DNA from: Christensenella sp. UBA7588
GTDB taxonomy: Bacteria > Bacillota > Clostridia > Christensenellales > CAG-917
Length of the DNA stretch: 64,000 bases
Assembly: GCA_002478945.1 (NCBI GenBank)
Contig: DLKM01000026.1
Location: 348-64,347, forward strand
Reading direction: 5' to 3'
In this document: positions 3,358 through 27,913 of the stretch, piece after piece
Layout of the letters: every line of letters starts with the position of its first letter
Position numbering within the stretch: the stretch's first letter is position 1
Notes under the pieces: model-generated
Seen by the model: the letters and a program-made list of their open reading frames with translations, nothing else
Database searches by the model: none
Told to the model about the DNA's origin: nothing
Translations under genes and position numbers: made by a program

Positions 3358-4351
3358 TATAGCACCTTTTCACACGCCCTTTCCACGACGTATAGACGCA
3401 ATATTCTATAGTTTTTCTTTGTCTTGCAACCGTTTCGGCGCAGTTTTCGTCAAGCAAAGCGACCTGCTGTCCTACTCGTGCGAGAGTATCCCCCGTATCC
3501 ACGACGAACATATCCATACACACGTCGCCTATCACTTTGCAAGGCTTTTTGTCGATATAAACGTCGGAAGGGTTCTCTCTGTCAACTCCGTCGGCGTAGC
3601 CTCCGAAAACGACCGCCGTATTCGTGTCTCTTGTCACGGCGTAGTTTCCGTAACTTACGCACTCTCCCGCTTTCAGCCGTCTGCTTTCCAGTACTTGCGA
3701 AAACACGCTCATTGCGCCCGTATATGCGCCGATTCCAACCCTTACGGCATCGAATCGCAATCTCTCGTTCGCAAGCGAATGTGTGGACGCAAGATGCACT
3801 TTGGCATTTGGATAAACGTCTTTAACGGCGCAAACGCATCTGTTGAATTCCTCAAGTTGCGCCAAAGTTCCGTCACGAAGATGCGAATACACTCCTTCGA
3901 CGTTAAATCCGCTCGTTTTGAGCATTCTAACGGTATTTTTTGCACCGTCGTAATCAAAGCCGAGTCTGTGCATACCGCTGTCGACTTTGATATGAATTCT
4001 TGCGCCGTGCGTATCGATTGCGCCCTTTTTGGCAAGAGCGCGCAACGTTTGCACTTGTTCTAAGTTGTGAATTGCGACGATTGCACCGAGTTTTATCGCA
4101 GAGCGCAATTCCTCGCAGGCGCACGCGCACAATAATATATCCTTGCGTATGCCCGACTTTTTCAGCTTGCGAGCTTCCTCTACGGTAACGACGCCGAAAG
4201 CCGAAACGACGTTTTCCGTCGCTTTTGCCACTTGCACCGATCCCATACCGTAAGCGTCTGCTTTTACCATAAGCAAAATCGGCACGCCGACACTTTCTTT
4301 TATCTTTGCGATATTGCGCCTTATTACGTCAAGGTCAACGACGATTTTCAG
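3302..4351 (-). CDS. alr: Alanine racemase (start extended upstream of the track ORF to a probable CTG)
   Basis: PLP-lysine motif VKADAYGMG. The frame stays open 22 codons upstream of the listed GTG (LKIVVDLDVIRRNIAKIKESVG) back to a TAG. GAGGTGG lies about 9 nt before CTG at 4351-4349. Confidence 0.8.
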   Translation of the reverse strand: MKIVVDLDVIRRNIAKIKESVGVPILLMVKADAYGMGSVQVAKATENVVSAFGVVTVEEARKLKKSGIRKDILLCACACEELRSAIKLGAIVAIHNLEQVQTLRALAKKGAIDTHGARIHIKVDSGMHRLGFDYDGAKNTVRMLKTSGFNVEGVYSHLRDGTLAQLEEFNRCVCAVKDVYPNAKVHLASTHSLANERLRFDAVRVGIGAYTGAMSVFSQVLESRRLKAGECVSYGNYAVTRDTNTAVVFGGYADGVDRENPSDVYIDKKPCKVIGDVCMDMFVVDTGDTLARVGQQVALLDENCAETVARQRKTIEYCVYTSWKGRVKRCYNGQKTSEKNCRRKSCEDD

Positions 4352-4416
4352 TTTTATAACCCACCTCGGCTATCATTGTATGAGCCGAATGCGAAAACCG
4401 TGAAAGCGTTGTACTC

Positions 4417-6615
4417 TTAACCTCTTTTATAATAGTTGATAAGGCAACCGTCGGCTATTATTTGTTTTTCGGCTTCGGTAAGTGCGTCCATATGAACGTT
4501 TATTCTTTGAGCCTTGCAGTCGCGCACGAGGTACGCTTCAAAATCTTTGCCGTGCAACACGCTGTCTCTTGCGTTTGCTATTACGACGACGTCGCCTTTT
4601 CTATACTGCGTTTCGCTATCCAACAGCGGCAACATACCCCAGTTTATAAGATTCGAGCGGTATCTCTTTGTGGCGTATTCTCTTGCGATATTTGCGCCAC
4701 CGCCCAAAAAGCGTTGGCAACTTGCCGCCTGCTCTCTTGCGCTGCCGTCTCCCGGCTTTCTTGCGAATATACAAGAATTTATCGTCGTATCGTCCACATT
4801 CAATCCGCAAAGACGAATCGCTTTTTTCACGTCCTCGTTGTCGCTGTCTCTGACCTGCTTGCTTTCTTTGACGTACGCAGGGTCTTTCCTCGACAGCGCA
4901 AATTCGGCAAGTCGCAACGGATTGCTCCTGTAAGACGACGTTTCTCCCGAAGGTATAAGTTCGTCCGTAGTCGTAACGGGGTCCTCGATAACCGAGCAGA
5001 CTTTGAGTGCGAGATTCGTTTTGAGCGGTTCGATTGTCGGAATATCCGTAATATTAGGTCCGTAAACGAGTTCAACGGACGAATCGGCTTTGCCGAAACC
5101 GTCGTATACTCTCGAAGCATATACTTGCGGATTGTATTCGAACTTTTCAAATTCGTCGTCAAAGTCCATATCGAGCGCAGACGTCAACACTCCTCCGTTT
5201 GCGGCGGTTGCCGCAATGGAGCGTGCGTCCATAAGCGCAACGGAAGCAATTTGCTTGTCGGCAGGTTTGCTTCCCTCTCTGCGTTCAAAATTCCTCGTCG
5301 TATGCCTTATGCTGAAACCGTTGTTGCAAGGCACGTCTCCCGCGCCGAAACACGGTCCGCAAAAACAAGGCTTGACGATTGCTCCGCTCTCTATGAAATT
5401 TGCAATCGCTCCGTTTTTGACGAGAGCGTAATTTGTCGGTTGAGAACCGGGATAGATTGTCAGCGAAAACTCTCCTTCCCCGACGCTCTTGCCTTTAAGT
5501 ATGTTTGCGGCGCACATAAGATTGTCGTAAGTACCGCCTGCGCAACCTGCGATAACGCCTTGAGACACGACGACTTTGCCGTCCTTGATTTTGTCCGTCA
5601 ACTTAAATTCGCCGTCAAGTCCGAGCAATGCGTTGCCGTCTTTTTCGACTTGAGACAAAATCTCGTACGGATGAGCGATAACGTCGGCAAGTTTATATAC
5701 GTTGGACGGATGAAACGGAAGCGCAATCATCGGTTCGACCTTTGACAAATCTATCACGATGCCTGCGTCGTATTCTGCGCCGTCTTTCGGCTCGAGCGTT
5801 TCGTAATCGTTCTCTCTGCCGTAAGCGCTAAGATACTCTCTGACCTTTTCGTCTGTACGCCATACGCTTGACAGACACGCGCTTTCCGTGGTCATAACGT
5901 CGATGCCGTTTCTATATTCCACCGACAAACCGTCTATTCCGTCTCCGACAAACTCCAATACGGCGTTTTTTACAAATCCGTTTTTGAATACCGCTCCGAT
6001 AAGAGCAAGCGCGACGTCTTGCGGACCTACGCCTTTACGCACTTTGCCCGTAAGTTCCACAGCAATTACGCGAGGATAATCTACGTCGTAGGTACGTCCC
6101 AACAGTTGTTTGACAAGCTCGGGGCCGCCCTCTCCGATTGCAATCGTGCCGAGCGCGCCGTATCTCGTGTGCGAGTCGCTGCCGAGAATCATCTTGCCGC
6201 AACCTGCAAATCGCTCCCTCATATAACTATGTATAACCGCAACGTTTGCAGGAACGTAAATTCCGCCGTACTTTTTTGCGCAGGACAGACCGAAAACGTG
6301 GTCGTCCTCGTTTATCGTGCCGCCTACCGCGCAAAGCGAGTTATGGCAGTTGGTAAGAACGTACGGAACGGGAAATTCTTTAAGTCCGCTTGCCTTTGCG
6401 GATTGAATGATGCCGACGTACGTTATATCGTGCGACGCCAACGCGTCGAAACGCACGTTGAGCTTTTTATCGTCGCCGCCAACGCTGTGTTTTGACAAAA
6501 TTCCATAAGCGATAGTGCCTTTTTTGTCGCATTTCACGCCTTTTTCGTGAGCCTCGTTTTCGTCGACGAGACGACGCGAGACGTAACAAACTTTTTTGTC
6601 GATAAGTTTTATCAT
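4417..6615 (-). CDS. Aconitase-family hydratase (putative aconitate hydratase)
   Basis: 732 aa with Fe-S ligand regions ILGSDSHTRYG and CFCGPCFG, and a C-terminal swivel-domain-like segment (GDGSAREQAA...INWG). Confidence 0.8.
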   Translation of the reverse strand: MIKLIDKKVCYVSRRLVDENEAHEKGVKCDKKGTIAYGILSKHSVGGDDKKLNVRFDALASHDITYVGIIQSAKASGLKEFPVPYVLTNCHNSLCAVGGTINEDDHVFGLSCAKKYGGIYVPANVAVIHSYMRERFAGCGKMILGSDSHTRYGALGTIAIGEGGPELVKQLLGRTYDVDYPRVIAVELTGKVRKGVGPQDVALALIGAVFKNGFVKNAVLEFVGDGIDGLSVEYRNGIDVMTTESACLSSVWRTDEKVREYLSAYGRENDYETLEPKDGAEYDAGIVIDLSKVEPMIALPFHPSNVYKLADVIAHPYEILSQVEKDGNALLGLDGEFKLTDKIKDGKVVVSQGVIAGCAGGTYDNLMCAANILKGKSVGEGEFSLTIYPGSQPTNYALVKNGAIANFIESGAIVKPCFCGPCFGAGDVPCNNGFSIRHTTRNFERREGSKPADKQIASVALMDARSIAATAANGGVLTSALDMDFDDEFEKFEYNPQVYASRVYDGFGKADSSVELVYGPNITDIPTIEPLKTNLALKVCSVIEDPVTTTDELIPSGETSSYRSNPLRLAEFALSRKDPAYVKESKQVRDSDNEDVKKAIRLCGLNVDDTTINSCIFARKPGDGSAREQAASCQRFLGGGANIAREYATKRYRSNLINWGMLPLLDSETQYRKGDVVVIANARDSVLHGKDFEAYLVRDCKAQRINVHMDALTEAEKQIIADGCLINYYKRG

Positions 6616-6681
6616 ACTTGTCCTTTATGCCGTAAATTCAAGCATTCGTTGCAAAAAACGCTTCGGAATGCCTGATTTCTA

Positions 6682-7152
6682 TTATTTTTTGTTTTTATCT
6701 TTCTTTTCGGGAGTGAAAACCTCAACTATAACGTCTCCTCTGTGCGCACGCAGTTGAGCAATGAAATCGTCGACTTTCTGAGTCGGGATATTCACTCTGA
6801 AACTGATATTTCCGTCCGTTTCCTTCACGCCTTTCGTGATAAGGTAGATTTCTCTCGTTTCGCTGTTTTGTTTTACGCAAACGATGTCCGAATAGCCGAA
6901 TTTGTCGACGAAAACGCCCAAAGACGTGACGAGAATGTAGTCTTTGAACTTGTAGTAACTGTTGAAAATCATAAGCAATGCCAAAACGGCAATGAGAACT
7001 GCCGCGCCGAGCGACACTCCCGCTATGGCAGGTTCTGCAGAAACGCTGCCTACAAGCATCGCTATATCTACGCCGACGATTGCAAGCGCGCCTGCAACGA
7101 TAAGCGCAAGCAAAACGGTTTTTACTATACCGAAATACATTCTGAATTTCAT
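6682..7152 (-). CDS. Membrane protein, two N-terminal TM helices plus a small soluble (bPH-like) domain
   Basis: 156-aa ORF with a hydrophobic N-terminus. RBS AGGAGCGG. Confidence 0.5.
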   Translation of the reverse strand: MKFRMYFGIVKTVLLALIVAGALAIVGVDIAMLVGSVSAEPAIAGVSLGAAVLIAVLALLMIFNSYYKFKDYILVTSLGVFVDKFGYSDIVCVKQNSETREIYLITKGVKETDGNISFRVNIPTQKVDDFIAQLRAHRGDVIVEVFTPEKKDKNKK

Positions 7153-7183
7153 AATCCGCTCCTATTTACGATATTTGGCAACC

Positions 7184-8179
7184 TTACTCTATCGAGTCTT
7201 TATCCGTTTCGTCATTCGATTCCGTCAAATCGGCTTTGTCTTGTTGCTCCGTTCTGTATCCGAACTCCACCGTATTTACCACCGACGTCGCGTCCGTATA
7301 GAAGCTGAATCCTTTCGTCTTATAATAGCCGATAAGCTCTATTGCGCGAAGAATGAAATAATACAGCGACGGCAGAATCACGGACATAAGACCGCCCGTG
7401 GGTATCGAGAACGTCGTAGCAAACAGGTAAACGATTGTAAAAGTGACTGCGTAGGACTTGAAAAGACCGCCTACGTTTGACTTTACATAGGTCAGACTTC
7501 TTGCAAAAGCGGTAAACTCTTTTTCTTCGGGATGGAAAAGAAGTCTCGGCAACCACCCTGCGAAAAGCGTGGCTCTAAGCGAACAGAACACGACTCCGAG
7601 AACGAAAAGTATCGGCACGATGAAAAAGCCGATAAAACGGAACAAACCGAACGCTATCGAAGCTATTATCGTGAAAATAATCAAATCGATAGGCAATGCG
7701 ATTGCAAGTCTCGAAAGCGAATATCTCACGCATTTTTTGAAGTTGAGCGCAAGGTTGCTCGCAAAACCGAACTTAAGGTTGGACGCCATTATATTGTTGA
7801 TTATATCGGCAAGCGCATAATACGACAATCCGAACAAGAAACAATAGAACGCATACAAAAACACACCCGCAAACGCAAGTCCCGTCGCAACTCCTGCGTT
7901 TTGTCCCAAATCGCTCAATATGTTCTGCACTTCCAAAAACGCGCAGGACAGCGTACCCCTTATGGTACTCGAGCCGTCCCATACCGTGGATAAACACGCC
8001 TTTAGGGAATCGACGTGTACGGATATATCCGACTCGCAAGCAACGACGTTCCAAATCGGCAATATAATTGCCGCGCCGAGCGCGAGCGTAAGCGCAAGGC
8101 ATATCAAAATCCACAAGAAGATTTTGAGCGCATATCCCATATTGGAAAAGAGCATTGACAAAGAATACTTAAATTCCAT
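7184..8179 (-). CDS. Polytopic membrane protein, unknown function
   Basis: Multiple hydrophobic helices. Start trimmed to MEFKYSL, which has GGAGAGG upstream. Confidence 0.5.
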   Translation of the reverse strand: MEFKYSLSMLFSNMGYALKIFLWILICLALTLALGAAIILPIWNVVACESDISVHVDSLKACLSTVWDGSSTIRGTLSCAFLEVQNILSDLGQNAGVATGLAFAGVFLYAFYCFLFGLSYYALADIINNIMASNLKFGFASNLALNFKKCVRYSLSRLAIALPIDLIIFTIIASIAFGLFRFIGFFIVPILFVLGVVFCSLRATLFAGWLPRLLFHPEEKEFTAFARSLTYVKSNVGGLFKSYAVTFTIVYLFATTFSIPTGGLMSVILPSLYYFILRAIELIGYYKTKGFSFYTDATSVVNTVEFGYRTEQQDKADLTESNDETDKDSIE

Positions 8180-16643: not shown

Positions 16644-17270
16644 CTAAACACATTTATACTCTTTATTGTCGGTCAATACGACGTCTGCTTTACCGCCAGA
16701 TATTTCTCTCACGCTTGACACAAACGCCTCTGCGTCGTCCTCGGGAACGAACGCTTTGCACGCAACGTCCTGACCGTATTCCACGCTGTCGACAACGACG
16801 CCGCTTTTGCGGATAAATTTATCAATAACCGCAAAACTCGGATAATCTGCCGTTACGGCAATCTGTTTGCAAAGCACTTTTTGCGAGATTTTGCCCGCCT
16901 TTACGCCCTTACTTGCCGTATCCGAATACGCTCCGACAAGTCCGCCCGCGCCGAGTTTTATTCCTCCGAAGTATCTCGTCACTACAATCGCGCTCTTGAC
17001 AAGATTCTGCTTTCGAAGCACGTCGAGAATGGGCTGTCCTGCCGTACCCGACGGTTCTCCGTCGTCGCTGAATCTCGTCACGTTTCCGAGTTCGTCTCCG
17101 ACGTAGCCGTAGCAATTATGCGTGGCGTCGGGATACTTTTTCCGCACGCTTTTGACAAATTCTTCCGCCTCGTCGGCGTTTAATTCGCCTTTGACGGTAG
17201 CAATGAAAATCGAGCGTTTAATCTCGATTTTCACTTCGTATTCGCCGTCAATATAGCGGTAAGATTTCAC
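16644..17270 (-). CDS. yigZ: YigZ/IMPACT family protein
   Basis: KRSIFIA...HNCYGY...FSDDGEPSGTAGQPIL...VVTRYFGGIKLG. Confidence 0.85.
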   Translation of the reverse strand: MKSYRYIDGEYEVKIEIKRSIFIATVKGELNADEAEEFVKSVRKKYPDATHNCYGYVGDELGNVTRFSDDGEPSGTAGQPILDVLRKQNLVKSAIVVTRYFGGIKLGAGGLVGAYSDTASKGVKAGKISQKVLCKQIAVTADYPSFAVIDKFIRKSGVVVDSVEYGQDVACKAFVPEDDAEAFVSSVREISGGKADVVLTDNKEYKCV

Positions 17271-18478
17271 TCTACGGTAACCTTGTAGAAATTCTTTTTG
17301 CCTTTTTGCAGGACAAATCCGTTTGCGAGTTGACTATCGGTAACTTGCGCCATAATGTCCGTGATTTTTTGCCCGTCAACGGAGATTCCACCGCCTTGAA
17401 TGAGGCGTTTTGCCTCGCCTTTGGACGGAACTTTTGCAACGGCAACGAGAATATCGGCAACGGACGTCACGCCTTGCGGAATCGTTGCGGAAGGCATATT
17501 TTCGCTATCTCCCGAGAATGCCGCACGCGCTTTGTTCAAAGCGTCCTCCGCTTCTTCTTCGCCGTGAACCATTTTGGTAAGCTCGTATGCAAGACGCTCT
17601 TTTGCCTTGTTCATACGCTCGTCGTTGTACTTGGTAAGCTCTGCAATCTCGTCAAGCGGCACGAACGTGAGGAATCTGAACACCTTTTCCACGTCGGCGT
17701 CCGCAATGTTGCGCCAGTACTGGAAGAAATCGTACGGAGCGGTCTTGTTGGGGTCGAGCCACACGGCACCTTTTGCCGTCTTGCCCATTTTGATACCCTC
17801 GGACGTCGTAAGCAAGCCGAAAGTGATTGCAAAAGCGTCTTTTTGCTCTTTTCTGCGAATAAGGTCTGCGCCTGCAAGCATATTTGACCATTGGTCGTCT
17901 CCGCCGCATTGCAATACGCATCCGTATTTACGGTTAAGCACCAAAAAGTCATAAGACTGCATAAGCATATAGTTGAATTCGAGGAAGGTCAAGCCCTTTT
18001 CGAGGCGTTGCTTGTAGCACTCCGCCGTGAGCATACGATTGACCGAGAAATTCGCGCCGACTTCGCGCAAAAAGTCGATATAATTGAGGTCGAGAAGCCA
18101 ATCTGCGTTATTGACGAGAATCGCCGCATTTTCGCCCTCGAAACGCACGAATTTTGCCATTTGCTTTTTGAAGCAATCAACGTTGTGTTGAATGGTCTCT
18201 TTGGTCATCATAGAGCGCATATCGGTACGACCTGACGGGTCTCCGACCATTGCCGTGCCACCGCCGATAAGGATAATCGGACGATGTCCTGCGTCCTGCA
18301 AACGTTTTGCAACAATCATCTGCATAAAGTGTCCGACGTGAAGGCTGTCTGCCGTCGGGTCGAAACCGATGTAGAAAGATTGAGGACCTTCGTCCAACAT
18401 TTTTTTGAGGTCGTCCTCAAACACCACTTGTTTGACAAGTCCGCGCTCGCGGAGTTGATCGATAATGTTTTGTGACAT
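17267..18478 (-). CDS. tyrS: Tyrosine--tRNA ligase
   Basis: HIGH region DSLHVGHF, KMGKT (KMSKS-like) and a C-terminal S4 domain. Start trimmed to MSQNIIDQL. Confidence 0.95.
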   Translation of the reverse strand: MSQNIIDQLRERGLVKQVVFEDDLKKMLDEGPQSFYIGFDPTADSLHVGHFMQMIVAKRLQDAGHRPIILIGGGTAMVGDPSGRTDMRSMMTKETIQHNVDCFKKQMAKFVRFEGENAAILVNNADWLLDLNYIDFLREVGANFSVNRMLTAECYKQRLEKGLTFLEFNYMLMQSYDFLVLNRKYGCVLQCGGDDQWSNMLAGADLIRRKEQKDAFAITFGLLTTSEGIKMGKTAKGAVWLDPNKTAPYDFFQYWRNIADADVEKVFRFLTFVPLDEIAELTKYNDERMNKAKERLAYELTKMVHGEEEAEDALNKARAAFSGDSENMPSATIPQGVTSVADILVAVAKVPSKGEAKRLIQGGGISVDGQKITDIMAQVTDSQLANGFVLQKGKKNFYKVTVE

Positions 18479-18519
18479 AATACTATTCCTATTAAAAGAT
18501 ATTTTATTATATATTGCAA

Positions 18520-18548
18520 ATTGTACCACCGCCCCGCGCTTTTGGCAA
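18520..18548 (-). promoter_or_regulatory. Sigma-A-type promoter for tyrS
   Basis: Minus strand reads TTGCCA-17 nt-TACAAT, about 40 nt upstream of the tyrS start. Confidence 0.6.
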
Positions 18549-18601
18549 CATCTTTTTGCCACGAATCGATTGCTTGTCCGCCCCTGCCTCGAAAACGGTA
18601 T

Positions 18602-18629
18602 AAAAAAACCGCCGAAGCGGCGGTTTTTA
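18602..18629 (-). terminator. Intrinsic terminator downstream of the lipoprotein gene
   Basis: CCGCCG-AAGC-GGCGG flanked by an A-run and a T-run. Confidence 0.8.
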
Positions 18630-18649
18630 TGTAAAACGTCTTTATTCAA

Positions 18650-20014
18650 TCAACTTTTACAATATTTGTTGTTTGCGCTTTCCCAGTCATAATCAAGGTC
18701 TGTTGCGCTTGTGTAATAAGTGTAAGACATAGCATAGTTGCCCAATTCTCCAGATTTTGCCATTGAAATTATTTCTTCTCTGCTACAATATTCAGCAAAT
18801 GAAGAGAAATCATACCCGATGTATTGCGTTTTATGCTTGCTTTCATCGTAAGTCATTAATCTAACTTCGCTGAAATTTCCATTCTTATTATATATAATTT
18901 TTGAGGCGAAAAGTATCTTGTTGCCTTTGTCGTTTTCGCAACAATTAAAAATATAGATTGCCGATTCTTCATTATACGCATCTAATTTCAAAACGACTCT
19001 TACATCCCTGACACCATTAAAAAACTCAAGCAATTCTTTTGCATTGTTGTAATTTTTAGGAGTGTTAGCCCCTTCAAACGTTATAGCCATATAGTTCTTT
19101 TTGTATATTCCGCTAACATCTCTTGATATAATTTCAGCATCAACAATCAAATAGAAATTGTTCGATGTCTTTTTAATCGAATGAATTTTTCTCACATAGG
19201 AATTTGGATATTCTTTGGAATTTGCATAGTTTTCCGCATACCAATTCTTGACGATTTCAACTATCGTCCAATAGCTTTTTTCTTCTATTGCCTCATCTGC
19301 CTGTTGCTGTGCAAGTGCAATTTGTTCGTCGGTTGCTCCGTCCTCTTTTGTGGGAACAATCGGAATAATTATATCCTGCGGCTTTTTGTCGGGAACGTCG
19401 TTTTGTATTTCTTCTTTTATCTTTTCGCTTCTTGCGATTTCTTCTTGCGTAGGTGCGTTTTCCCCGCATCTAACACACTTTCCGTTTTCAAAAGAGTGAC
19501 CGAGACGAGAGACGGATTGTTTGGTCGAATACGAGCAGCCATCTCTCTTGCAAGCAACATAAGCCGTGTAACCGTCGTCAAGACAAGTAGGTTCTTGTGC
19601 TTGGTATGATTGCAAATCGTGTCCGTACTTTGCACACAAGTATTCGGCGGACGGAGTCGGTATTTCCGCGTCTGCGCTTCTTGCATACACAACCTCGTTG
19701 CCGTCGATATAAAGTTTCAAAGAACCTCTTATATGTCCGGACAACGTCAAGTCGCCGACAATACGGATATTCCCGTCCAAAACGTTATCGACGGTATACG
19801 TTCCGCAGTTTGCCTTATAATCTTGCCACGTTCCGTCGTCTTTCAAATAAAGCCATACGTCTTTATTTATATCGTCGCCGTCTTTGAGATAGAAAACGCC
19901 CTGATACGCACTATAATCTGCCTGTTGTGCTTTCGATTTGTCGCAAGAAACGAATAAAAGCATTGCGACCGACAAAACAATTAAAAACAATGCTATAGAT
20001 TTGAATAATCTCAT
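18650..20014 (-). CDS. Putative lipoprotein, unknown function; compositionally chimeric
   Basis: Signal peptide plus Cys (MRLFKSIALFLIVLSVAMLLFVSC). Start trimmed; GGGGAAA lies upstream. The 3' ~750 nt are visibly AT-rich. Confidence 0.6.
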   Translation of the reverse strand: MRLFKSIALFLIVLSVAMLLFVSCDKSKAQQADYSAYQGVFYLKDGDDINKDVWLYLKDDGTWQDYKANCGTYTVDNVLDGNIRIVGDLTLSGHIRGSLKLYIDGNEVVYARSADAEIPTPSAEYLCAKYGHDLQSYQAQEPTCLDDGYTAYVACKRDGCSYSTKQSVSRLGHSFENGKCVRCGENAPTQEEIARSEKIKEEIQNDVPDKKPQDIIIPIVPTKEDGATDEQIALAQQQADEAIEEKSYWTIVEIVKNWYAENYANSKEYPNSYVRKIHSIKKTSNNFYLIVDAEIISRDVSGIYKKNYMAITFEGANTPKNYNNAKELLEFFNGVRDVRVVLKLDAYNEESAIYIFNCCENDKGNKILFASKIIYNKNGNFSEVRLMTYDESKHKTQYIGYDFSSFAEYCSREEIISMAKSGELGNYAMSYTYYTSATDLDYDWESANNKYCKS

Positions 20015-20187
20015 AGTATTTCCCCATATACCTGCTGATACGTTCATTTTAGTTGAACGACGGAATTTTGTCAATACAACGGACACATACACAGCGAAAT
20101 GTAAAGATATGTAGGTCTAAAAATTCGGATATTTTATAAAAAACATATCAGAATTTCCGTGCGGCGGTATATTTTTTTTGTATTTTC

Positions 20188-20216
20188 TTGATAAAACTTT
20201 ATCTATATGATAAAAT
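20188..20216 (+). promoter_or_regulatory. Sigma-A-type promoter of the NifU-like/GGGtGRT operon
   Basis: TTGATA-17 nt-TAAAAT with a TG immediately upstream of the -10 element. RBS TGGAGG at 20248-20253. Confidence 0.6.
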
Positions 20217-20262
20217 ATCATCATAAAATCAATATAAACACTCTATATGGAGGCAATTATCT

Positions 20263-20964
20263 ATGCAATATTCAAGTGAAGTTGAAAACATGTGTTGCGT
20301 TGCTAAGGGTCCCAACCACGGTCCCGCACCTATCCCCGAAGAAGGCAAATGGGTGCAAGCAAGAGAAATCAAGGACATCAGCGGTCTTACCCACGGTGTC
20401 GGCTGGTGCGCTCCTCAACAAGGCGCGTGCAAACTTACGCTCAACGTTAAAGACGGCGTTATCCAAGAGGCTCTTGTGGAAACCATCGGTTGCTCAGGTA
20501 TGACTCACTCTGCGGCTATGGCAGCGGAAATTCTTACCGGTAAGACCATTCTCGAAGCACTCAACACCGACCTCGTATGCGATGCTATCAACACCGCTAT
20601 GCGTGAACTTTTCTTGCAAATCGTATATGGCAGAACGCAATCCGCATTCTCCGAAGGCGGTCTAGTTATCGGCGCAGGTCTCGAGGACCTCGGCAAAGGT
20701 CATCGCAGCCAAATCGGCACGATGTACTCCACCGTTTCCAAAGGCCCCCGTTATCTCGAAATGGCTGAAGGATACGTCACCAAAGTCGCTCTCGACGCAA
20801 ACAACGAGATTATCGGTTATCAATTCTGCAAGCTCGGCGTTTTGATGGATATGATTAAAAAAGGCGTCGACGCAAACGAAGCAGTGGCAAAATGCACAGG
20901 CACTTACGGCAGATACAAAGCCGAAGACGGTGCTGTCAAGTGGATTGACCCGCGTCAAGAATAA
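20263..20964 (+). CDS. NifU/IscU-like domain protein, partner of the GGGtGRT protein
   Basis: ETIGCSGMTHSAAMAAEILTGKTILEAL resembles the IscU scaffold region. Forms a tight operon with the next gene. Confidence 0.65.
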   Translation: MQYSSEVENMCCVAKGPNHGPAPIPEEGKWVQAREIKDISGLTHGVGWCAPQQGACKLTLNVKDGVIQEALVETIGCSGMTHSAAMAAEILTGKTILEALNTDLVCDAINTAMRELFLQIVYGRTQSAFSEGGLVIGAGLEDLGKGHRSQIGTMYSTVSKGPRYLEMAEGYVTKVALDANNEIIGYQFCKLGVLMDMIKKGVDANEAVAKCTGTYGRYKAEDGAVKWIDPRQE

Positions 20965-20979
20965 TCGGAGGACGAAACA

Positions 20980-21984
20980 ATGAGTGTAACATTTGAAGGT
21001 TATGAAAGAAGAATAGACAAAATCAACGGCGTTCTTGCTCAATACGGCATCAAGGACCTCGAAGAAGCAAGAGACCTCTGCCTCTCCAAAGGCGTTGATT
21101 GCAACGCAATCGTCAAAGGCATTCAACCTATCTGCTTTGAAAACGCAGTTTGGGCATACACCGTCGGATGCGCAATCGCAATCAAGAAAAATTGCGTAAA
21201 CGCGGCAGACGCGGCAGAAGCTATCGGCGAAGGTTTGCAATCGTTCTGCATCCCCGGCTCCGTTGCAGAGCAACGTAAAGTCGGTCTCGGACACGGCAAC
21301 CTCGCGGCAATGCTCCTCAGAGAAAGCACCAAGTGCTTCGCTTTCCTCGCAGGTCACGAATCGTTTGCGGCGGCAGAAGGCGCAATCGGCATTGCAAGAA
21401 CTGCAAACAAAGTCAGAAAAACTCCGCTCAAAGTCATCCTCAACGGTCTCGGCAAAGACGCGGCATTTATCATCTCTCGTATCAACGGCTTCACTTACGT
21501 CCAAACCAAAATGGACTACTTCAGCGGCGAAGTGAAAGTTGTCAAAGAGACTCCCTACTCCAACGGCGAGCGCGCGGCAGTCAGAGTGTACGGCGCAGAC
21601 GACGTAACCGAAGGCGTTGCGATTATGCGTCTCGAGGACGTTGACGTTTCTATCACGGGCAACTCCACCAACCCCACTCGTTTCCAACACCCCGTCGCAG
21701 GCACTTACAAGAAATGGTGCGTTGACAACGGCAAAAAATACTTCTCCGTTGCGTCAGGTGGCGGCACGGGTCGTACTCTCCACCCCGATAATATGGCGGC
21801 AGGTCCTGCGTCCTACGGTATGACCGACACGATGGGTAGAATGCACTCCGACGCACAATTTGCAGGTTCTTCATCCGTTCCCGCACACGTCGAAATGATG
21901 GGCTTAATCGGTATGGGCAACAACCCGATGGTCGGTGCAAGCGTTGCTTGCGCAGTCGCAGTACAAGAAGGTTTGACAAAGTAA
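20980..21984 (+). CDS. GGGtGRT family protein (function unknown)
   Basis: Contains the eponymous ASGGGTGRTLHP motif. Confidence 0.75.
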   Translation: MSVTFEGYERRIDKINGVLAQYGIKDLEEARDLCLSKGVDCNAIVKGIQPICFENAVWAYTVGCAIAIKKNCVNAADAAEAIGEGLQSFCIPGSVAEQRKVGLGHGNLAAMLLRESTKCFAFLAGHESFAAAEGAIGIARTANKVRKTPLKVILNGLGKDAAFIISRINGFTYVQTKMDYFSGEVKVVKETPYSNGERAAVRVYGADDVTEGVAIMRLEDVDVSITGNSTNPTRFQHPVAGTYKKWCVDNGKKYFSVASGGGTGRTLHPDNMAAGPASYGMTDTMGRMHSDAQFAGSSSVPAHVEMMGLIGMGNNPMVGASVACAVAVQEGLTK

Positions 21985-22333
21985 GTTGTGCGCAAAGCAA
22001 CGATTGATTGTTTGCGTAGCAAATAGCACCAGTAACACAAAAGGCACTCAACAGAGTGCCTTTTCTGGTGCAGAATAATCGGTCGCTTGTGCAGTAGCAG
22101 TACAAGAAGGTCTCACGAAGTAATCGTTTGCACAAGCGAACGAAAAATCTTTGCGTAAGCAAAGTAGAACCAAAACACAAAAGCACCTGAAAAGGTGCTT
22201 TTTGGGTTCTATAAATTGCGTTGCTTGCGCAGTCGCTGTTCAAGAAGGTTTGACGAAGTAAGAAAAACCTACTAAATAGTAGCATTTTGAAGAATATAGC
22301 ACCTATCCAAAAATTGCGATAGGTGCTATTTTT
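21943..22333 (+). repeat. Tandem array (period ~137-140 bp) of the last 13 codons plus stop of the GGGtGRT gene, each copy followed by its own terminator
   Basis: The 42-nt copies lie at 21943-21984 (in the gene), 22082-22123 and 22220-22261. All translate to VACAVAVQEGLTK-stop. Terminator hairpins lie at 22043-22066, 22182-22203 and 22297-22333. Confidence 0.9.
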
Positions 22334-22480
22334 ATATCTAAGAGTGTTCCGTTTGGGAAAGAAATGTAAACAATGTTTACCGTTTGTTTACCGAATTTTA
22401 AAAACGCAAAAACCCACCGTTGGATGGGGTTTCGCTATATTCAACTTCTTATTATCTTTTTTATTTGTAACATTTTAAGA

Positions 22481-22891
22481 CTACATATCTAAAACTAAAT
22501 TTTTAGTCAATTCTATAGCGTTATATATTGGCAATTGAATAGTTGACATGCCCGGTTGAGTCGTAACCAATGATATTTGACTACGCAAATATGGCAACAT
22601 TATAGCAACAGTATTTGTCTTGAGCATTGACAACTGAATCTCCTTATCTAAAATTTCAGCGTTGACAAGCTCAAAATCAGCTTGTTCACACGCCGTAACA
22701 TTCAGATCTCCTTGCCCCTTTATGGTTAGCATTATAACTACTCTTACAGATTTTTCCGTAAGTTTTCTATATTTAATATCAAAACTAGCATCAGCCTCAA
22801 TCTTTCCTATATAATCTACATTTCTTGAGATACACATACTAGGAAAGCATAAATTATACATCTTAAGTAATCCTTGTATGTTAGTTTCCAT
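22481..22891 (-). CDS. SecB-like chaperone (TAC system chaperone)
   Basis: VRVVIMLTIKG...ACEQADFEL...AIMLPYLRSQISLVTTQPGMSTIQLPIYNA parallels E. coli SecB VVLRVTVTA...LCEVQQGGIF...[41 protein letters not shown] lies 12 nt after the higA stop. Confidence 0.7.
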   Translation of the reverse strand: METNIQGLLKMYNLCFPSMCISRNVDYIGKIEADASFDIKYRKLTEKSVRVVIMLTIKGQGDLNVTACEQADFELVNAEILDKEIQLSMLKTNTVAIMLPYLRSQISLVTTQPGMSTIQLPIYNAIELTKNLVLDM

Positions 22892-22903
22892 AATACACCT
22901 CTT

Positions 22904-23272
22904 TTAAGCAGCATATACCGCTGAGTTAATAATTATCTTTTTCCCTACTGACAAATCTTCAACTGGCATAAACAGTTCGGTATTCTGTTTGTTTTCAGAT
23001 ATCTCGAATCTGCTTTTGTATGATTCTTCTTTTCCAAGTTGGAATAACTCATATTTTTTTTGTTGATACAGCAAACTATCAGCCGGATATCCTGTTGCCT
23101 TTTCAAAAGCAGCTGCCATCAATGTTGTGACGCTTCTCTTTCCTGCTAGCATACTACTAATTACAGTTTTATTTACATTCATCTCTTTTGCAAGCCATTT
23201 TTGAGATTTGTTAATTGACATTAAAACTGTTCGCATTATGCTTCCAGGATGAACGCAATAATCTTTTTCCAT
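22904..23272 (-). CDS. higA: HigA-type XRE-HTH antitoxin with a C-terminal extension (candidate chaperone-addiction segment)
   Basis: HPGSIMRTVLMSINKSQKWLAKEMNVNKTVISSMLAGKRSVTTLMAAAFEKATG is a HigA-like HTH. It is followed by a ~45-aa tail. Start at MEKDY, preceded by AAAGGAG. Confidence 0.75.
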   Translation of the reverse strand: MEKDYCVHPGSIMRTVLMSINKSQKWLAKEMNVNKTVISSMLAGKRSVTTLMAAAFEKATGYPADSLLYQQKKYELFQLGKEESYKSRFEISENKQNTELFMPVEDLSVGKKIIINSAVYAA

Positions 23273-23331
23273 ATTCATATCTCCTTTTATATTTAAAGCA
23301 ATACATCTATAACATAATATGATATGTATTG

Positions 23332-23652
23332 TCATAATCTATACTTATGTTTGTCTATTTTTATTATCTCAATTTCAATCCCTTGATTACAACGTTTTAG
23401 ATAAAGCCTATAAAGACTTTTTTTCTTTTTAGGAATAATCCTTAGTGAATACTTGTCAATTGTCCCTTGAACCTTTTCATAGTTATACCCATGGAAATTT
23501 CTCATTAGATCAATATTGTTAATTGATTCTAGCATAGAAATTAAGACTTTTAAACACATCACCAATTCTTTATTATGGTTAAAAAACTTGTTCATTTCTT
23601 TCTCGCTTGAACAAAGTTTTTCTATTTCATTATTGGCATATGTAATTATCAT
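23332..23652 (-). CDS. higB: HigB-like (plasmid-maintenance killer / RelE-fold) toxin
   Basis: Toxin-first gene order. Pattern ...DLMRNFHGYNYEKVQG..DKYSLRI....RLYLKR......IEIIKIDKHKY matches the HigB family layout. Start trimmed to MIITYANNE. Confidence 0.65.
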   Translation of the reverse strand: MIITYANNEIEKLCSSEKEMNKFFNHNKELVMCLKVLISMLESINNIDLMRNFHGYNYEKVQGTIDKYSLRIIPKKKKSLYRLYLKRCNQGIEIEIIKIDKHKYRL

Positions 23653-23678
23653 AGATCCTATACTTCCCCAAAACAATG

Positions 23679-23733
23679 GTTAACAATTTTTGTTAACTAA
23701 GGATATTATATATAAGGAAAACTTATATTTCAA
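23679..23733 (-). promoter_or_regulatory. TAC promoter with an operator-like inverted repeat
   Basis: Minus strand reads TTGAAA-17 nt-TATAAT (23733-23705). An 8-3-8 inverted repeat GTTAACAA-AAA-TTGTTAAC (23679-23697) lies just downstream of the -10 element. Confidence 0.65.
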
Positions 23734-23871
23734 GCATTTTAACGAACTTTTTTAAGTTTTTAATAAATCGCACTTTATTGTCACCAACAATACTCTTAGA
23801 AAACAGAGCTTACAATATTTAACCTCCACAAGAATTAAAAATTTCCAAGAGATAACAAATATATTAAATAA

Positions 23872-23970
23872 AGTATTTTGATATTGCTAGATATCAATTT
23901 TGGAATTACTGCAATGTTGCTTGCAGCTGTAACAATTCAAAAAAGACTTATAAGGCAAGTTAAACTTTAA
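23872..23970 (+). pseudogene. Possible relic 3' end of a divergent, AT-rich GGGtGRT-family gene
   Basis: Translates to ...NFGITAMLLAAVTIQKRLIRQVKL-stop, compared with the host gene end NPMVGASVACAVAVQEGLTK-stop. Shares TTGCTTGC at the nucleotide level. Similarity is weak. Confidence 0.35.
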
Positions 23971-24053
23971 AACAATCCCGTTTCGCCACTTTTATTTGCG
24001 TTATAGAGTTTTAAATTTATAATGTCTTAATTATTAATTTCAGTAAAAAACTT

Positions 24054-24659
24054 TTAGCACCCTAAAACTTGGTTTACAATCACCACCTCATACGGGCAAT
24101 TTGTGGGTTTGCGCCAAAGGACGACGAGACCTTTGCAAATGCGTTCGGGGCTGTTGCAATTATAGCATCTGTCGGCGTTTACGGCGCACGGCGTGTTTTT
24201 ATGAAGGCGTTTTGCATTCTTGGGTGCGGCAACGTTTCTTGCACGCCACAATGCGCTGTCGAAGTCGGGCGCAATCTTGTTGTTGCCGACGATAATATAC
24301 ACTTTCTCGTGTCCGTACAATTCCCCTGCCACTCTGTTGCAGTTGCCGTCGATATTGATAATCTCGCCCGTTTCGGCAATGCCGTTTGCACTTGTCAAAA
24401 AAACGTCGGCGGTAAGCGACTCTTTCATAACTTCGGTCGGAGTTTTTCCGTCGGGATTGTCAAACCTATATAGGACCTTGTTGTGCGATTCGAGCATTTT
24501 GAGTATTCCCGTCTCGTCAAGCGTCACGGAGCCGCCGAATCCGACGCTTTTGCCGTCTATTGCGCCGTTAAGATAGTCGTTTGCCTCTTGCACGGTATCG
24601 AATACGGACACCGTAAAGCCGTTTTTCTCGAGATTTGCTTTTATATTTGAATAGTCCAT
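24054..24659 (-). CDS. LUD-domain (LutC/YkgG-like) protein
   Basis: 201 aa; ...FGGSVTL...FLTSANGIAETGEIINIDGNCNRV... and a C-terminal Cys cluster CYNCNSPERIC. Confidence 0.7.
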   Translation of the reverse strand: MDYSNIKANLEKNGFTVSVFDTVQEANDYLNGAIDGKSVGFGGSVTLDETGILKMLESHNKVLYRFDNPDGKTPTEVMKESLTADVFLTSANGIAETGEIINIDGNCNRVAGELYGHEKVYIIVGNNKIAPDFDSALWRARNVAAPKNAKRLHKNTPCAVNADRCYNCNSPERICKGLVVLWRKPTNCPYEVVIVNQVLGC

Positions 24660-24734
24660 TCATACCCTCGCATTTTTACTTATAGTAAAGGCGCAAAATA
24701 CATTGCGCCTTAAAAATATCGTTTTTATTTACGA

Positions 24735-26102
24735 TTATTGTTCGCGAACAATATCGGTTTGAGCGAAATTCTTGATTTCTTTCATATGTGCGTTTGCTTC
24801 TTCAAACGTGTTTTGCGGAGAGCCTTTATGCACGTAAGTCTTGCGCTTAAGCACGAAGAAGAATTTGCCGTCAGCCGCTTCAATCGTGTAAGTACCGATA
24901 ATGGCGTGAGATTTGAAACGATTGATTGCTCTTTCGCAGAACTCTTTCGTCGTGTAGTTGGAACTCTCGTAAATATTGTTTCCGCTGGCGTCGTAGAGAG
25001 TATAGAAATACTCTTGAGAGCCGTCGGGCTTATCGACGTGTTCTATAACGTATTTACCGTAAATGACGGACTCGTCAAAGCCTGCGACCTTTTCGGGAGT
25101 TTTACGAACGTTCTTGGGCGTTTTGAGTGCCGCAAACGGAGGCGCGACTTTCTTGATGACGACCTTTTTATCCTTGTTTGCATTGAGGGCTTCGAGTTCT
25201 GCCTCTTTTGCCGCAAGTTTCTTTGCGAGAGCGGCAGACGGAGTGCCTTCGTAGTAGCAAGCGTCCTCGGGGTCGTAATAATAACCCTCATAGGTGCCGT
25301 CATACTTGGACCAATCGTCGGGTTTCTTCTTGACGACCTTCTTCGTAGTCGGCTTCTCAACGCCTTTCTTTACAGGAACTTCTTCCTTGACAGGTTCGGG
25401 TTCGACTACGGGTTCTTCCTTGACAGGTTCCTCTTTAACGGGAGCAGGTTCTTCTTTTTCGGCTACGGGTTCAGCCTCTTGAACGGGCGCAACCTCTTGA
25501 ACGGGTTCTGCAACTGGTTCTGCAGGGACAACGGGTTCTGCGGGAGCGGGTGTTTCGACAGCCTCGACAGGTGCAGGTTCTTGTACGGGAGCAGGTTTTT
25601 CTTTAACTTCCTCTTTCACAGGCTCTGCAACGGGTTCCGCAACGGGTTCCGCAGGAGCGACGGTTTCCGCTACGGGTTCCGCCACGGTTTCTTCTTTAAC
25701 CTCGTCGGCGGCAACTTGCTCTTGAACTTGTTCTTGCGCTTGTGCCTCCTCTGCGACAGGTTCGTCCTGCACTACGGGTTCCTCTCTCTGCTCTTGAACG
25801 GGTTGTTCGTCAACGTCGGGAACTACGGGAACGTCGTCGACGTCGTCAACGTCGTTACCTTTCAGTTTATTGCGCAATCTCGCAAGTTTCTGATTGAGGC
25901 GCAATTCCTCGCCCGTAACGCCGTATTCGGAATAAAACTCGTTTTCCTCTTTGTCCTCTTGAGCGTCTTTCTTTTCTTTGACCGCTTTCAAAATATTGAA
26001 AATGAGAACGGCAATAAGCGCCGCCGCTGCCAATGCGAGAGCAATGATAATCACGAGTGCGCTAAAACCATCGATAGGACCGAGTTTGAGGTTATCTAAC
26101 AT
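24735..26102 (-). CDS. Membrane-anchored protein with an E/P/V/A-rich spacer and a C-terminal tandem YegP (DUF1508)-like domain
   Basis: N-terminal TM helix (FSALVIIIALALAAAALIAVLIF). Repeats of the EPVAEPVAEPV type. C-terminus YGKYVIEHVDKPDGSQEYFYTLYDASGNNIYESSNYTTKEFCERAI...DGKFFFVLKRK resembles YegP repeats. Confidence 0.65.
   Translation of the reverse strand: MLDNLKLGPIDGFSALVIIIALALAAAALIAVLIFNILKAVKEKKDAQEDKEENEFYSEYGVTGEELRLNQKLARLRNKLKGNDVDDVDDVPVVPDVDEQPVQEQREEPVVQDEPVAEEAQAQEQVQEQVAADEVKEETVAEPVAETVAPAEPVAEPVAEPVKEEVKEKPAPVQEPAPVEAVETPAPAEPVVPAEPVAEPVQEVAPVQEAEPVAEKEEPAPVKEEPVKEEPVVEPEPVKEEVPVKKGVEKPTTKKVVKKKPDDWSKYDGTYEGYYYDPEDACYYEGTPSAALAKKLAAKEAELEALNANKDKKVVIKKVAPPFAALKTPKNVRKTPEKVAGFDESVIYGKYVIEHVDKPDGSQEYFYTLYDASGNNIYESSNYTTKEFCERAINRFKSHAIIGTYTIEAADGKFFFVLKRKTYVHKGSPQNTFEEANAHMKEIKNFAQTDIVREQ
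25385..25820 (-). repeat. Low-complexity coding repeat (P/E/V/A-rich) inside the YegP-like gene
   Basis: Reiterated GAACC/GGTTC-rich short units. They also create a full-length antisense shadow ORF. Confidence 0.8.
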
Positions 26103-26290: not shown

Positions 26291-27838
26291 TCAACCGAAA
26301 TGCGCAACGATAGTCGCAACGACCATTCCCACCGAAGCGGTTATCGACAAAGCCTTGAGTCTTTCGCTTTTCTTGAGCAATACGAATCTCGAAAGCAACA
26401 ACAGCGATGTCAATAGGAAAAGCAATCCGACGATTCCGACCTCGGAATCGACCGAGGCAATATTCAAAGTGCCGATTGCTCCGACGTAAAGCCTGAACGG
26501 CAAAAGCAAATATTTGATTAGCCAAACAAAACCGCCCCACGTCGTAATCAAAGACAACAATACGAGTACGAGCATAATAACGTACACGACCATTATGTAC
26601 GGCAGAATCAAAAAGTTCGACAACAAAAACAGCACGGGAACCTGTCCGAAGAAGTATGCGACGAACGGATACGACATTAGGTTTGTGGCAAAAGAAACCG
26701 CACAAACGCTTGCGAACTTCTTGCCGATTTTGCGTTTGGGACTAATCTTGTTTACGATTTTATCTCCCACTCTTTCAAACGGTCTCACAAACGCATAAAT
26801 ACCTAAAACGGAAGCGAACGACAGCAAAAAACCGACATCCAAAATCGCGCACGGTCTGAACAATAAAATAAGTATGGCGGCAAGAGATAAAGACGATAAA
26901 TCGTCTTTCTTCCTACCGAAAGAGGACGCGAACATACTCACGCCGCTCATAACTACTGCACGCAACGACGACGCCGTGAACGAACAAAGCATCGAATAAA
27001 AGAACGTTGCGACAAGCACTATAACGAAACTGATTTTGGGATTTACCTTGAGTTTTTTGAAAACGAAATACAATGCGCCCGCAAGCGTCGAAACGTGCAA
27101 ACCGCTGACTGCGAGAACGTGTGCGAGTCCGCTGGCTTTGATGTTGTCGTATAAATCTCCGTCTATGCCGAATTTGTCGCCTATAACGAGTGCTTGCGCT
27201 ATCGACGAGGTGTAATCGTCGGTATTTTCGTAAAGAATGCGTTTGATTTTGAGTTGAATATTGTCGGGAAACTTGAGTTTGCCCTCGCCTATCTTTTGCA
27301 CGCTCGAAACGTTTGCGTGATAGCGCACTTTGTTTTGATTGTGCAAGGCATAATAAGTGCTGAATTTTTCGTGACCGTAAAAAGTTATCGTGCCTTCGAC
27401 TTGCACGAAATCTCCTGCGGAAAAATCTACGTCGTACAAGTATGCTTCCGCATAAACCGTATAACCGCACTCTCCGTCGTCGGTCTTTACGTTGTCGAGA
27501 TAGAAACGCGCTTTGCCGTTTTCGACGACGATTTCGCTCGAGACCTGCGCGGTAAAAGTGCCGCTGTATTTGCGAAAAGCCACGTCGTTATATGCAAGAT
27601 TGCTCGCAGTCATTGCGACAAAACCTATCATAATCGCAAGCGGAACGTAAAAGAGTTTTCGAGATTTTTTGAATGCGGTAACGAGAGAAAAACAGACTAT
27701 TAAAAGAGCAAGCAGTCCGATATACCACCAAACCGCAACTCCGTAAACAGCCTCCGCAAGCAATATGCCGACAATCAAAGAAATCGCAAAGCAGACCATA
27801 GGTCTGTAATTGAATATTCTTCTGCCCTTTATCGTCAT
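26291..27838 (-). CDS. comEC: ComEC/Rec2 family competence channel protein lacking the C-terminal metallo-beta-lactamase domain
   Basis: GLAHVLAVSGLHVSTLAG core, with an N-terminal OB/DUF4131-like region. Ends after the membrane domain. Start trimmed to MTIKGRR, preceded by GAGGGA. Confidence 0.75.
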   Translation of the reverse strand: MTIKGRRIFNYRPMVCFAISLIVGILLAEAVYGVAVWWYIGLLALLIVCFSLVTAFKKSRKLFYVPLAIMIGFVAMTASNLAYNDVAFRKYSGTFTAQVSSEIVVENGKARFYLDNVKTDDGECGYTVYAEAYLYDVDFSAGDFVQVEGTITFYGHEKFSTYYALHNQNKVRYHANVSSVQKIGEGKLKFPDNIQLKIKRILYENTDDYTSSIAQALVIGDKFGIDGDLYDNIKASGLAHVLAVSGLHVSTLAGALYFVFKKLKVNPKISFVIVLVATFFYSMLCSFTASSLRAVVMSGVSMFASSFGRKKDDLSSLSLAAILILLFRPCAILDVGFLLSFASVLGIYAFVRPFERVGDKIVNKISPKRKIGKKFASVCAVSFATNLMSYPFVAYFFGQVPVLFLLSNFLILPYIMVVYVIMLVLVLLSLITTWGGFVWLIKYLLLPFRLYVGAIGTLNIASVDSEVGIVGLLFLLTSLLLLSRFVLLKKSERLKALSITASVGMVVATIVAHFG

Positions 27839-27913
27839 TTTTCCCTCGTAAAACTTATCGCAACCGAGCGCGTGCGTCGGTTGCGACAATAAAGCGTTTT
27901 CTTTTGTTAAAAC

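Follow-up and report, generated by a model that had tools for sequence, protein, structure and literature searches.

The 64-kb stretch of DNA analysed here (the window) carries on its forward strand a gene of the GGGtGRT family (20980..21984), which encodes a protein of 334 aa that matches Pfam PF14057 with E=5e-198. Its upstream partner is a NifU/IscU-like gene on the same strand (20263..20964; Pfam NifU_N, E=1.2e-4; NCBIfam NifU_clost, 3.9e-6, under the curated cut-off), and the pair is kept in relatives. The organism is Christensenella-like, with 99% identity at the protein level to the nearest reference genome, and 22 contigs encode a GGGtGRT protein identical to that of the window. The terminus of the gene is GTTGCTTGCGCAGTCGCAGTACAAGAAGGTTTGACAAAGTAA, and VACAVAV is kept throughout the GGGtGRT family.

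The last 45 nt of the gene (21940..21984) are the live copy of a repeat and consist of a Ser codon followed by a 42-mer for VACAVAVQEGLTK and the stop codon; positions 21943-21954 form the 5′ arm of a helix, H1. A tail of type A follows (21985..22081), with the 3′ arm of H1 at 21989-22001, the hairpin H2 at 22011-22023, a composite terminator at 22025-22071 in which an outer stem, H3, is built around the stem H4 (AAAAGGCACTC/GAGTGCCTTTT), and then a linker ending in TCG. Next comes a silent copy of the 42-mer (copy 2, 22082..22123) with a tail of type B (22124..22219; H1 3′ arm 22129-22141, H2 22149-22164, composite terminator 22165-22211), and finally a second silent copy (copy 3, 22220..22261) with a tail of type T (22262..22404), which holds a small hairpin (22269-22282), a terminator hairpin with a T-run (22296-22329) and GTTTAC-type motifs (22366-22392). 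All of these features lie on the forward strand, and tail T is found also in strains with other cargo or with none.

Beyond the array lies an AT-rich islet on the reverse strand (approximately 22405..24026; GC 25-35%), which is missing from two empty-site comparators (L119 and L096) and holds three reverse-strand genes, encoding a weakly SecB-like protein (22481-22891), a HigA-like antitoxin (22904-23335) and a putative toxin of 114 aa that was not recognised (23332-23676). A convergent gene for a LUD-domain protein (24054..24659, reverse strand; Pfam LUD_dom, E=7e-37) forms the right-hand border of the hotspot, and a ComEC competence gene (26291-27889) is found 4 kb from the array.

Three copies of one gene end

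An earlier note on this DNA had reported that the final 42 nt of the GGGtGRT gene occur twice more downstream, and this is borne out by a search of the 64-kb window with a degenerate, peptide-preserving pattern, which matched exactly three times (21943-21984, 22082-22123 and 22220-22261) and not once in 100 shuffles. Its count of differences was equally accurate: copy 2 departs from copy 1 at 6 nt (positions 3, 9, 15, 31, 33 and 36) and copy 3 at 3 nt (positions 18, 21 and 36), all nine changes are synonymous, lying at third-codon positions and at the first position of one Leu codon, and all three copies encode VACAVAVQEGLTK-stop. Since 25.4% of the possible single-nucleotide changes in the 42-mer are synonymous, nine out of nine corresponds to P ~4.4e-6. 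Separate translation of copies 2 and 3 was considered and rejected, as an in-frame TAA interrupts the reading two codons ahead of copy 2 and no ATG is available as a start; the 139-nt spacing also sets copies 1 and 2 in different frames. An antisense open reading frame (21653-22285) spans the copies in differing frames and is thus not coding. A candidate fourth copy at 23916 (GTTGCTTGCAGC...) reached a local alignment score of 21, against 16.9 +/- 1.9 (maximum 25) for shuffles, and is not significant. No other gene with stacked ends was found within the window.

The 42-mer does recur, but it is not the full extent of the repeat, which is a tandem unit of 139 nt (Tandem Repeats Finder: period 139 nt, 2.3 copies). 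This alters the reading of the terminators, which the earlier note had described as three different ones: a G+C-rich hairpin with a T-run does follow every copy (22039-22064, 22176-22204 and 22296-22333), but the tails that follow copies 1 and 2 share homology, being 70% identical over their full length and built on the same four helices, and the third tail alone is unrelated. Nor does the islet begin directly 3′ of copy 3, as had been thought, since about 145 nt (22262-22404) intervene and are present also in strains that lack the islet.

A structured 139-nt module

Each module joins 45 nt of coding sequence (Ser, 13 residues and the stop) to a structured tail of some 97 nt, closed by a terminator. 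The homology sets in one codon ahead of the 42-mer, at the Ser codon, and runs on through the tail. In A-type and second-species arrays a triplet resembling the live Ser codon (TCG, TCT or TCC) stands ahead of every downstream copy, and there is no trace before these copies of the Gly-Ala codons that precede the Ser codon in the gene. The linker is homologous in all internal units, ending in a Ser triplet in those same A-type and second-species arrays, and this sharing points to one ancestral junction.

Four helices make up the module. In H1 the first 12-13 nt of the 42-mer pair with sequence immediately past the stop codon; H2 is a small hairpin, H3 an outer stem, and H4 the terminator stem between an A-tract and a T-tract. 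Across 30 non-redundant units the helices pair in 95% of cells, as against 86% in shuffled data (0 of 500 shuffles reached 95%), and sliding the helix partners lowers pairing to about 45% of cells. Compensatory change was seen at 13 pairs across the 30 units, at six of the seven pairs of H3 types A and B have switched the pair, and three pairs of H1 include synonymous sites of the gene. The tails are under structural selection. H1 is a conserved imperfect hairpin with a bulged base, mismatched in about one quarter of units, and the edge of the unit, sharp and shared, stands at its foot.

The module resembles no catalogued RNA, in that an Rfam 15 scan of 19500-25000 returned sub-threshold matches only, the best of them (26.7 bits against a gathering threshold of 49) being driven by the terminator. 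Outside this locus, tails A, B and T had no match in the window and 1.1 Mb of fetched loci, and a dispersed repeat of the REP/BIME or MITE kind was rejected on this confinement. Sigma-70-like promoters were sought in the linkers and none was predicted.

Array polymorphism and imported gene ends

Across about 60 related contigs, which come from independent studies and assemblers, copy number ranges from 1 to 5, although the survey draws on metagenome assemblies only and counts of identical units are accordingly uncertain. Occupancy and copy number had been predicted to differ between related genomes, and both do. A metagenome scan, for which at least one intact copy per contig was required, contributed 51 of the contigs, about half of them with 2-4 intact copies; as the first scan was limited to peptide-preserving copies, a nucleotide-level rescan was then run, which brought in decayed copies, VACTVAVQGGLTK and VAGAVAVQEGLTK among them. 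The units are arranged head to tail and in register, with a period of 134-142 nt. Among contigs with the identical protein there are five architectures (a single copy with an unrelated tail; B-A; an A/B hybrid and then A; B-B-A; and A-B-T with the islet), of which the last, that of the window, was found independently in ENA, Logan and JGI assemblies. The order and type of tails differ even between strains whose gene bodies diverge by 1% or less, and two strain groups within that limit hold five and nine architectures. A unit that leads the array in some strains stands second in others, and A-type and B-type units precede at least five different backgrounds of 42-mer plus tail. Adjacent units are identical in two loci (L093 and L094) and a two-unit duplication is present in a third (L116), which shows that duplication in place is ongoing; unit 1 of L083 carries an A/B hybrid tail, and this, together with the mismatched H1 pairs, fits crossovers within units. 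The earlier note had set against its own reading the finding of a simple tandem duplication with no variation in occupancy; the repeat is indeed a local tandem one, but far from being invariant it is highly polymorphic and made of diverged alleles.

Arrays are not confined to one species. In a second one (L003, L094 and L100), with a protein about 90% identical, there are 3-5 copies, all of its own variant QEALTK, and one of the arrays terminates in a truncated copy. Among 80 reference-genome loci, repeated ends occur only in L003, as an array, and in L025, an unrelated genome in which an independent 67-bp duplication shows amino-acid changes. Two single-copy strains, L139 and L097, have an A-type or B-type tail as their sole tail, and this solitary occurrence of the two types, with the four helices that they have in common, marks them as native modules.

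Live and silent copies differ in constraint. Amino-acid changes are found in 12 of 63 downstream copies and in 1 of 62 live ends (Fisher P=0.002), and the downstream copies are free of coding selection. Compared with the nearest live allele they nevertheless show 97 synonymous and 26 non-synonymous nucleotide differences, or about 0.018 non-synonymous changes per site. The mostly synonymous divergence suggests that every copy was recently the live end of a diverged allele, and the low non-synonymous rate points to a short silent residence, which would be brief relative to the divergence of about 30% between tail types. The proposal that the silent copies once served as working ends in different lineages is in this respect supported by the synonymous signature.

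The gene end itself bears traces of exchange. Where the protein is identical, strains show 0-4 differences from the window per 201 nt over the first 800 nt of the gene, and yet two of them (L081 and L087) differ at 13 of the 46 terminal nucleotides, including a switch of the Ser codon between AGC and TCG. That incoming DNA had replaced the end of this gene was part of the earlier note, and these strains bear it out: their genes diverge by about 0.5% over the first ~950 nt, and the terminal ~46 nt are a foreign patch. The mosaic breakpoint is not fixed: that of L081 falls in the interval from -45 to -51, and that of L087 in the interval from -57 to -78. Across the whole sample the terminal 46 nt are the most diverged segment of the gene, an excess that is owed partly to the many four-fold degenerate codons there. 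The 3′-terminal ~100 nt of the LUD gene are mosaic too, with 18-19 differences in the 101 nt closest to the array, compared with 1-10 per block in the rest of the gene.

Origin and meaning of the array

The locus is probably best explained as a tandem array in which the end module of the gene itself turns over quickly, at a recombination hotspot between two convergent core genes, GGGtGRT and LUD. An old tandem duplication, with its left edge at -45 and its right edge about 15 nt past the terminator, would have produced the short repeat; unequal homologous recombination inside genomes would then add, delete and reshuffle modules, and recombination with the DNA of diverged relatives would do likewise. 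Only the first copy is translated, and modules displaced downstream are silent. The silent copies would keep the coding signature because they were lately live ends, exposed to very strong purifying selection on the C-terminus of the protein, and because modules turn over quickly relative to point mutation. Arrays of diverged modules, having no long identical stretches, may resist deletion and so persist longer. Three points sit uneasily with fast turnover by recombination. The left edge, at -45 in A-type, B-type and second-species arrays alike, lies no more than 3 nt from the base of H1, which a structure- or site-directed process would also give; recombination would be expected to be inefficient over 42-45 nt of imperfect homology, although turnover is fast; and about half of the strains sampled in two species carry arrays, for which selection or an active process, as opposed to neutral turnover, may be needed.

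The earlier note had instead attributed the copies to integrative elements that target the 42-nt core and leave att-like scars. In this account, site-specific elements with replacement ends integrate serially and decay to att-flanked remnants, and direct repeats of a gene's 3′ end that differ synonymously are its classic footprint. The accretion model expects integrases, element DNA between the att copies, bracketed cargo and an attP form, and tandem accretion with decayed elements is on record (PMC5704250). The window resembles accreted ICEs and CIMEs at a target 3′ end (ICESt1-type at fda, or those at tRNA genes) in its stacked direct repeats, three here and up to five elsewhere, in the origin of the copies from different lineages, in the intact gene and in the neighbouring site of variable cargo, which among strains holds a HigA-like toxin-antitoxin islet, a reverse-transcriptase cassette, two kinds of acyltransferase, an M3 peptidase or an Mrr-type nuclease. 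One locus (L138) even has its cargo bracketed by gene ends, a 5.2-kb retroelement-like insert flanked by one copy that resembles the donor and one that resembles the recipient, the latter with an abrupt start at -69; the arrangement suggests a single insertion-duplication, which would be anchored on gene-end homology. Against the account, no tyrosine or serine recombinase was recognised within ~6 kb downstream of the arrays at about 60 loci, where open reading frames were compared with the window proteins and read by eye, or among ten representative cargo proteins run against Pfam (RVT_1, DUF6273, Acyl_transf_3 in two, Peptidase_M3, Mrr_cat, a sub-threshold Ig-like match in one and no family in three). 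A pattern scan for the gene end in viral contigs gave no match; attP candidates from a phage database (MT835590 and others) proved to be whole NifU-like and GGGtGRT genes or gene ends at contig edges, and the single match in a plasmid collection was the annotated GGGtGRT gene of Collinsella. What lies between the copies is not element DNA but a mere ~97 nt that match the native tail seen in the single-copy strains L139 and L097. Apart from L138, and from an additional array copy in L107, cargo has no gene-end remnant at its far edge, and the comparators with empty sites place the start of the toxin-antitoxin islet about 145 nt past copy 3. The edge of the repeat varies by event (-45 in the arrays, -69 in L138, -54 in L025), as do the mosaic breakpoints, and identical units have been duplicated in place. 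Accretion of integrative elements is thus weakly refuted, and we hold it to be very unlikely at this locus; the att-like scars, with no integrase, attP or general far-edge remnant to accompany them, are unsupported.

Other readings of the array were considered. Improbable in our judgement, but suggested by the sharp common edge at the foot of a conserved, bulged hairpin, by modules that stand ahead of at least five backgrounds and by rapid turnover in spite of short homology, is a non-autonomous cassette that inserts at the base of H1, brings its own gene end and terminator and is moved by a folded-DNA recombinase encoded elsewhere, whether integron-like or of the HUH type. The absence of any visible recombinase near the arrays and the restriction of the tails to one locus in 1.1 Mb tell against it, as do the hybrid tails and mismatched H1 pairs, which indicate crossovers inside units, and the variable mosaic breakpoints. 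Integron attC sites have the layout RYYYAAC...GTTRRRY. The H1 arms, GTTGCTTGCGCA...TGCGCAAAGCAAC (GTTGC...GCAAC), place GTT outermost on the 5′ side and are unlike it, and neither an IntI integrase nor attI was found beside the array, where the adjacent genes are only the NifU-like, GGGtGRT, islet and LUD genes. The repeats of a diversity-generating retroelement were likewise rejected, since the differences (T/C, C/T, C/A, T/C, G/C and A/G) fall at third positions of codons and not at template adenines. Selection for extra modules, as stacked two-way terminators that shield a highly expressed gene from the convergent genes and the cargo or as sources of 3′ UTR-derived small RNAs, is unlikely as the explanation, and it is compatible with a turnover array. 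The structural selection on the tails, the terminators flanked by both A- and T-tracts between convergent genes and the commonness of arrays in two species speak for it, and the GGGtGRT protein seems to feature in gut and rumen metaproteome and expression studies; on the other side, a function of the tails does not account for the codon periodicity with which the loop part of the 42-mer (~29 nt) is conserved, about half of the strains do with one module, no sigma-70-like promoter was predicted in the linkers, and no Rfam family matched. That metagenome assemblers joined strain variants of one locus in series is scarcely credible. All of the loci do come from short-read metagenome assemblies, in which identical units (L093, L094) are not reliably countable, but the linker-to-42-mer junction needs reads that contain it, the copies differ and so have unique k-mers, and matching architecture emerges from different assemblers, studies and archives.

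A bolder reading, to which we likewise give little credence, is that the folded module is a gene-end cassette moved by a structure-specific recombinase, its foot being the insertion point and its content a spare set of essential C-terminal codons with a terminator, or else that the array offers homology landing pads for swaps of cargo. The cargo in question would include toxin-antitoxin modules, retroelements and acyltransferases, exchanged downstream of a gene in which no change is tolerated. If true, this would be a new class of small mobile or recombination-guiding element.

Taken as a fast-turnover array, the locus has several known counterparts. Prophages that integrate in genes carry replacement 3′ ends, as e14 and phage 21 do at icd in E. 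coli. There, as here, a displaced and untranslated former end differs mostly synonymously from the live one; however, each such case is one event with one displaced copy beyond a whole prophage, whereas the present arrays have up to five copies at 139-nt spacing with no element between them. Ordinary arrays formed by unequal crossing over at hotspots flanked by core genes have the same head-to-tail register, copy-number polymorphism, identical neighbours and mosaic ends of flanking genes, but here the units of a single array are diverged alleles (70-90% identical) from different lineages, and the repeat covers a coding end, such that the silent copies record past live alleles. The silent cassettes of pilS/pilE and vls are also untranslated partial copies beside an expressed gene, able to exchange with the live copy; in contrast to these, all copies here encode one peptide and no protein variation results. 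A polymorphic tandem array at a hotspot is of a known kind, and it is the archiving of former live gene ends that is the unusual property.

For genome scans there is a caution in this, as synonymous-only divergence in untranslated fragments is by itself no pointer to integrases, and a strongly constrained gene beside a recombination hotspot can yield the identical pattern. An abundant gut-bacterial gene of unknown function now has a defined and conserved four-helix 3′ module. Its silent copies are dated fossils of earlier live ends, with one locus displaying the diverged alleles that a lineage has carried, and because non-synonymous changes accrue only after silencing, the order and decay of the copies could serve to gauge rates of recombination and turnover in an uncultured gut clade.

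Cargo genes behind the GGGtGRT gene

In the comparison locus L138, two copies of the gene end bracket an insert of 5.2 kb (about 2572-7700, in coordinates of the reverse complement of the stored locus), which looks like a candidate diversity-generating retroelement. The insert carries a reverse transcriptase gene (RVT_1, with a YMDD motif), a DUF6273 protein whose C-terminal end reads WWLRSPY, a large protein whose Ig-like match is weak and below threshold, and a 150-aa protein that matched no family and that, judging by its size and position, we took to be a putative accessory protein.

The three minus-strand genes of the AT-rich islet (window 22481-23676) can be identified only weakly: the antitoxin resembles HigA (E=5e-11, slightly under the curated cut-off), the similarity of the chaperone to SecB is marginal (E about 1e-3), and the putative toxin, of 114 aa, matched no family. 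In L003, a locus of the second species, whose GGGtGRT protein is ~90% identical, a gene behind the array (5260-7280) encodes 673 aa with a restriction-endonuclease domain of the Mrr type, and in another comparison locus, L129, copy 2 is a partial gene-end copy joined directly to a piece of the gene for this Mrr-type protein.

Repeated motifs in the tails

Within the T tail that follows the third gene-end copy, window 22366-22392 reads TGTAAACAATGTTTACCGTTTGTTTACC, made up of inverted and direct GTTTAC motifs. This segment is kept beside varied cargo (the toxin-antitoxin islet, the retroelement, an acyltransferase, or none), the T' tail holds a diverged version of it, and it may be a protein-binding site. 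Another repeat is found downstream of the terminator in the single-copy strains L001 (about 5070-5170) and L134, which has the same tail; here four copies of the motif GTGATATT each precede a distinct mini-hairpin of 4-6 bp (CTCGCaaaGCGAG, TGCCtttGGCA, TTTTGCtttcGCAAAA and TGCGCCgtaGGCGCA).

Virome records and flanking DNA

Bacterial GGGtGRT sequence was found in three UNVERIFIED “Bacteriophage sp.” virome records (L142-L144; GenBank MT835590, MT838301 and MT835897). MT835590 holds a complete NifU-like and GGGtGRT pair, the gene ends in MT838301 and MT835897 are located at contig edges, and this DNA is either bacterial DNA within virome data or transduced DNA.

Further along the window, the minus-strand gene at 24735-26102 encodes a protein of 455 aa whose long internal repeats are rich in Pro, Glu and Val (direct-repeat families D1, D3, D4, D5 and D10); among strains, the protein ranges in length from 392 to 455 aa.

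The DNA 5′ of the NifU-like/GGGtGRT pair (window about 17270-20260) is also strain-specific when compared with L081, L082, L084, L085 and L087: the window has a single minus-strand gene of 480 aa, whereas other strains in which the GGGtGRT protein is identical carry two genes here, one of 460 aa and a ferredoxin/flavodoxin-like one of 231 aa. Thus, the two-gene core of NifU-like and GGGtGRT genes has variable DNA on either side.
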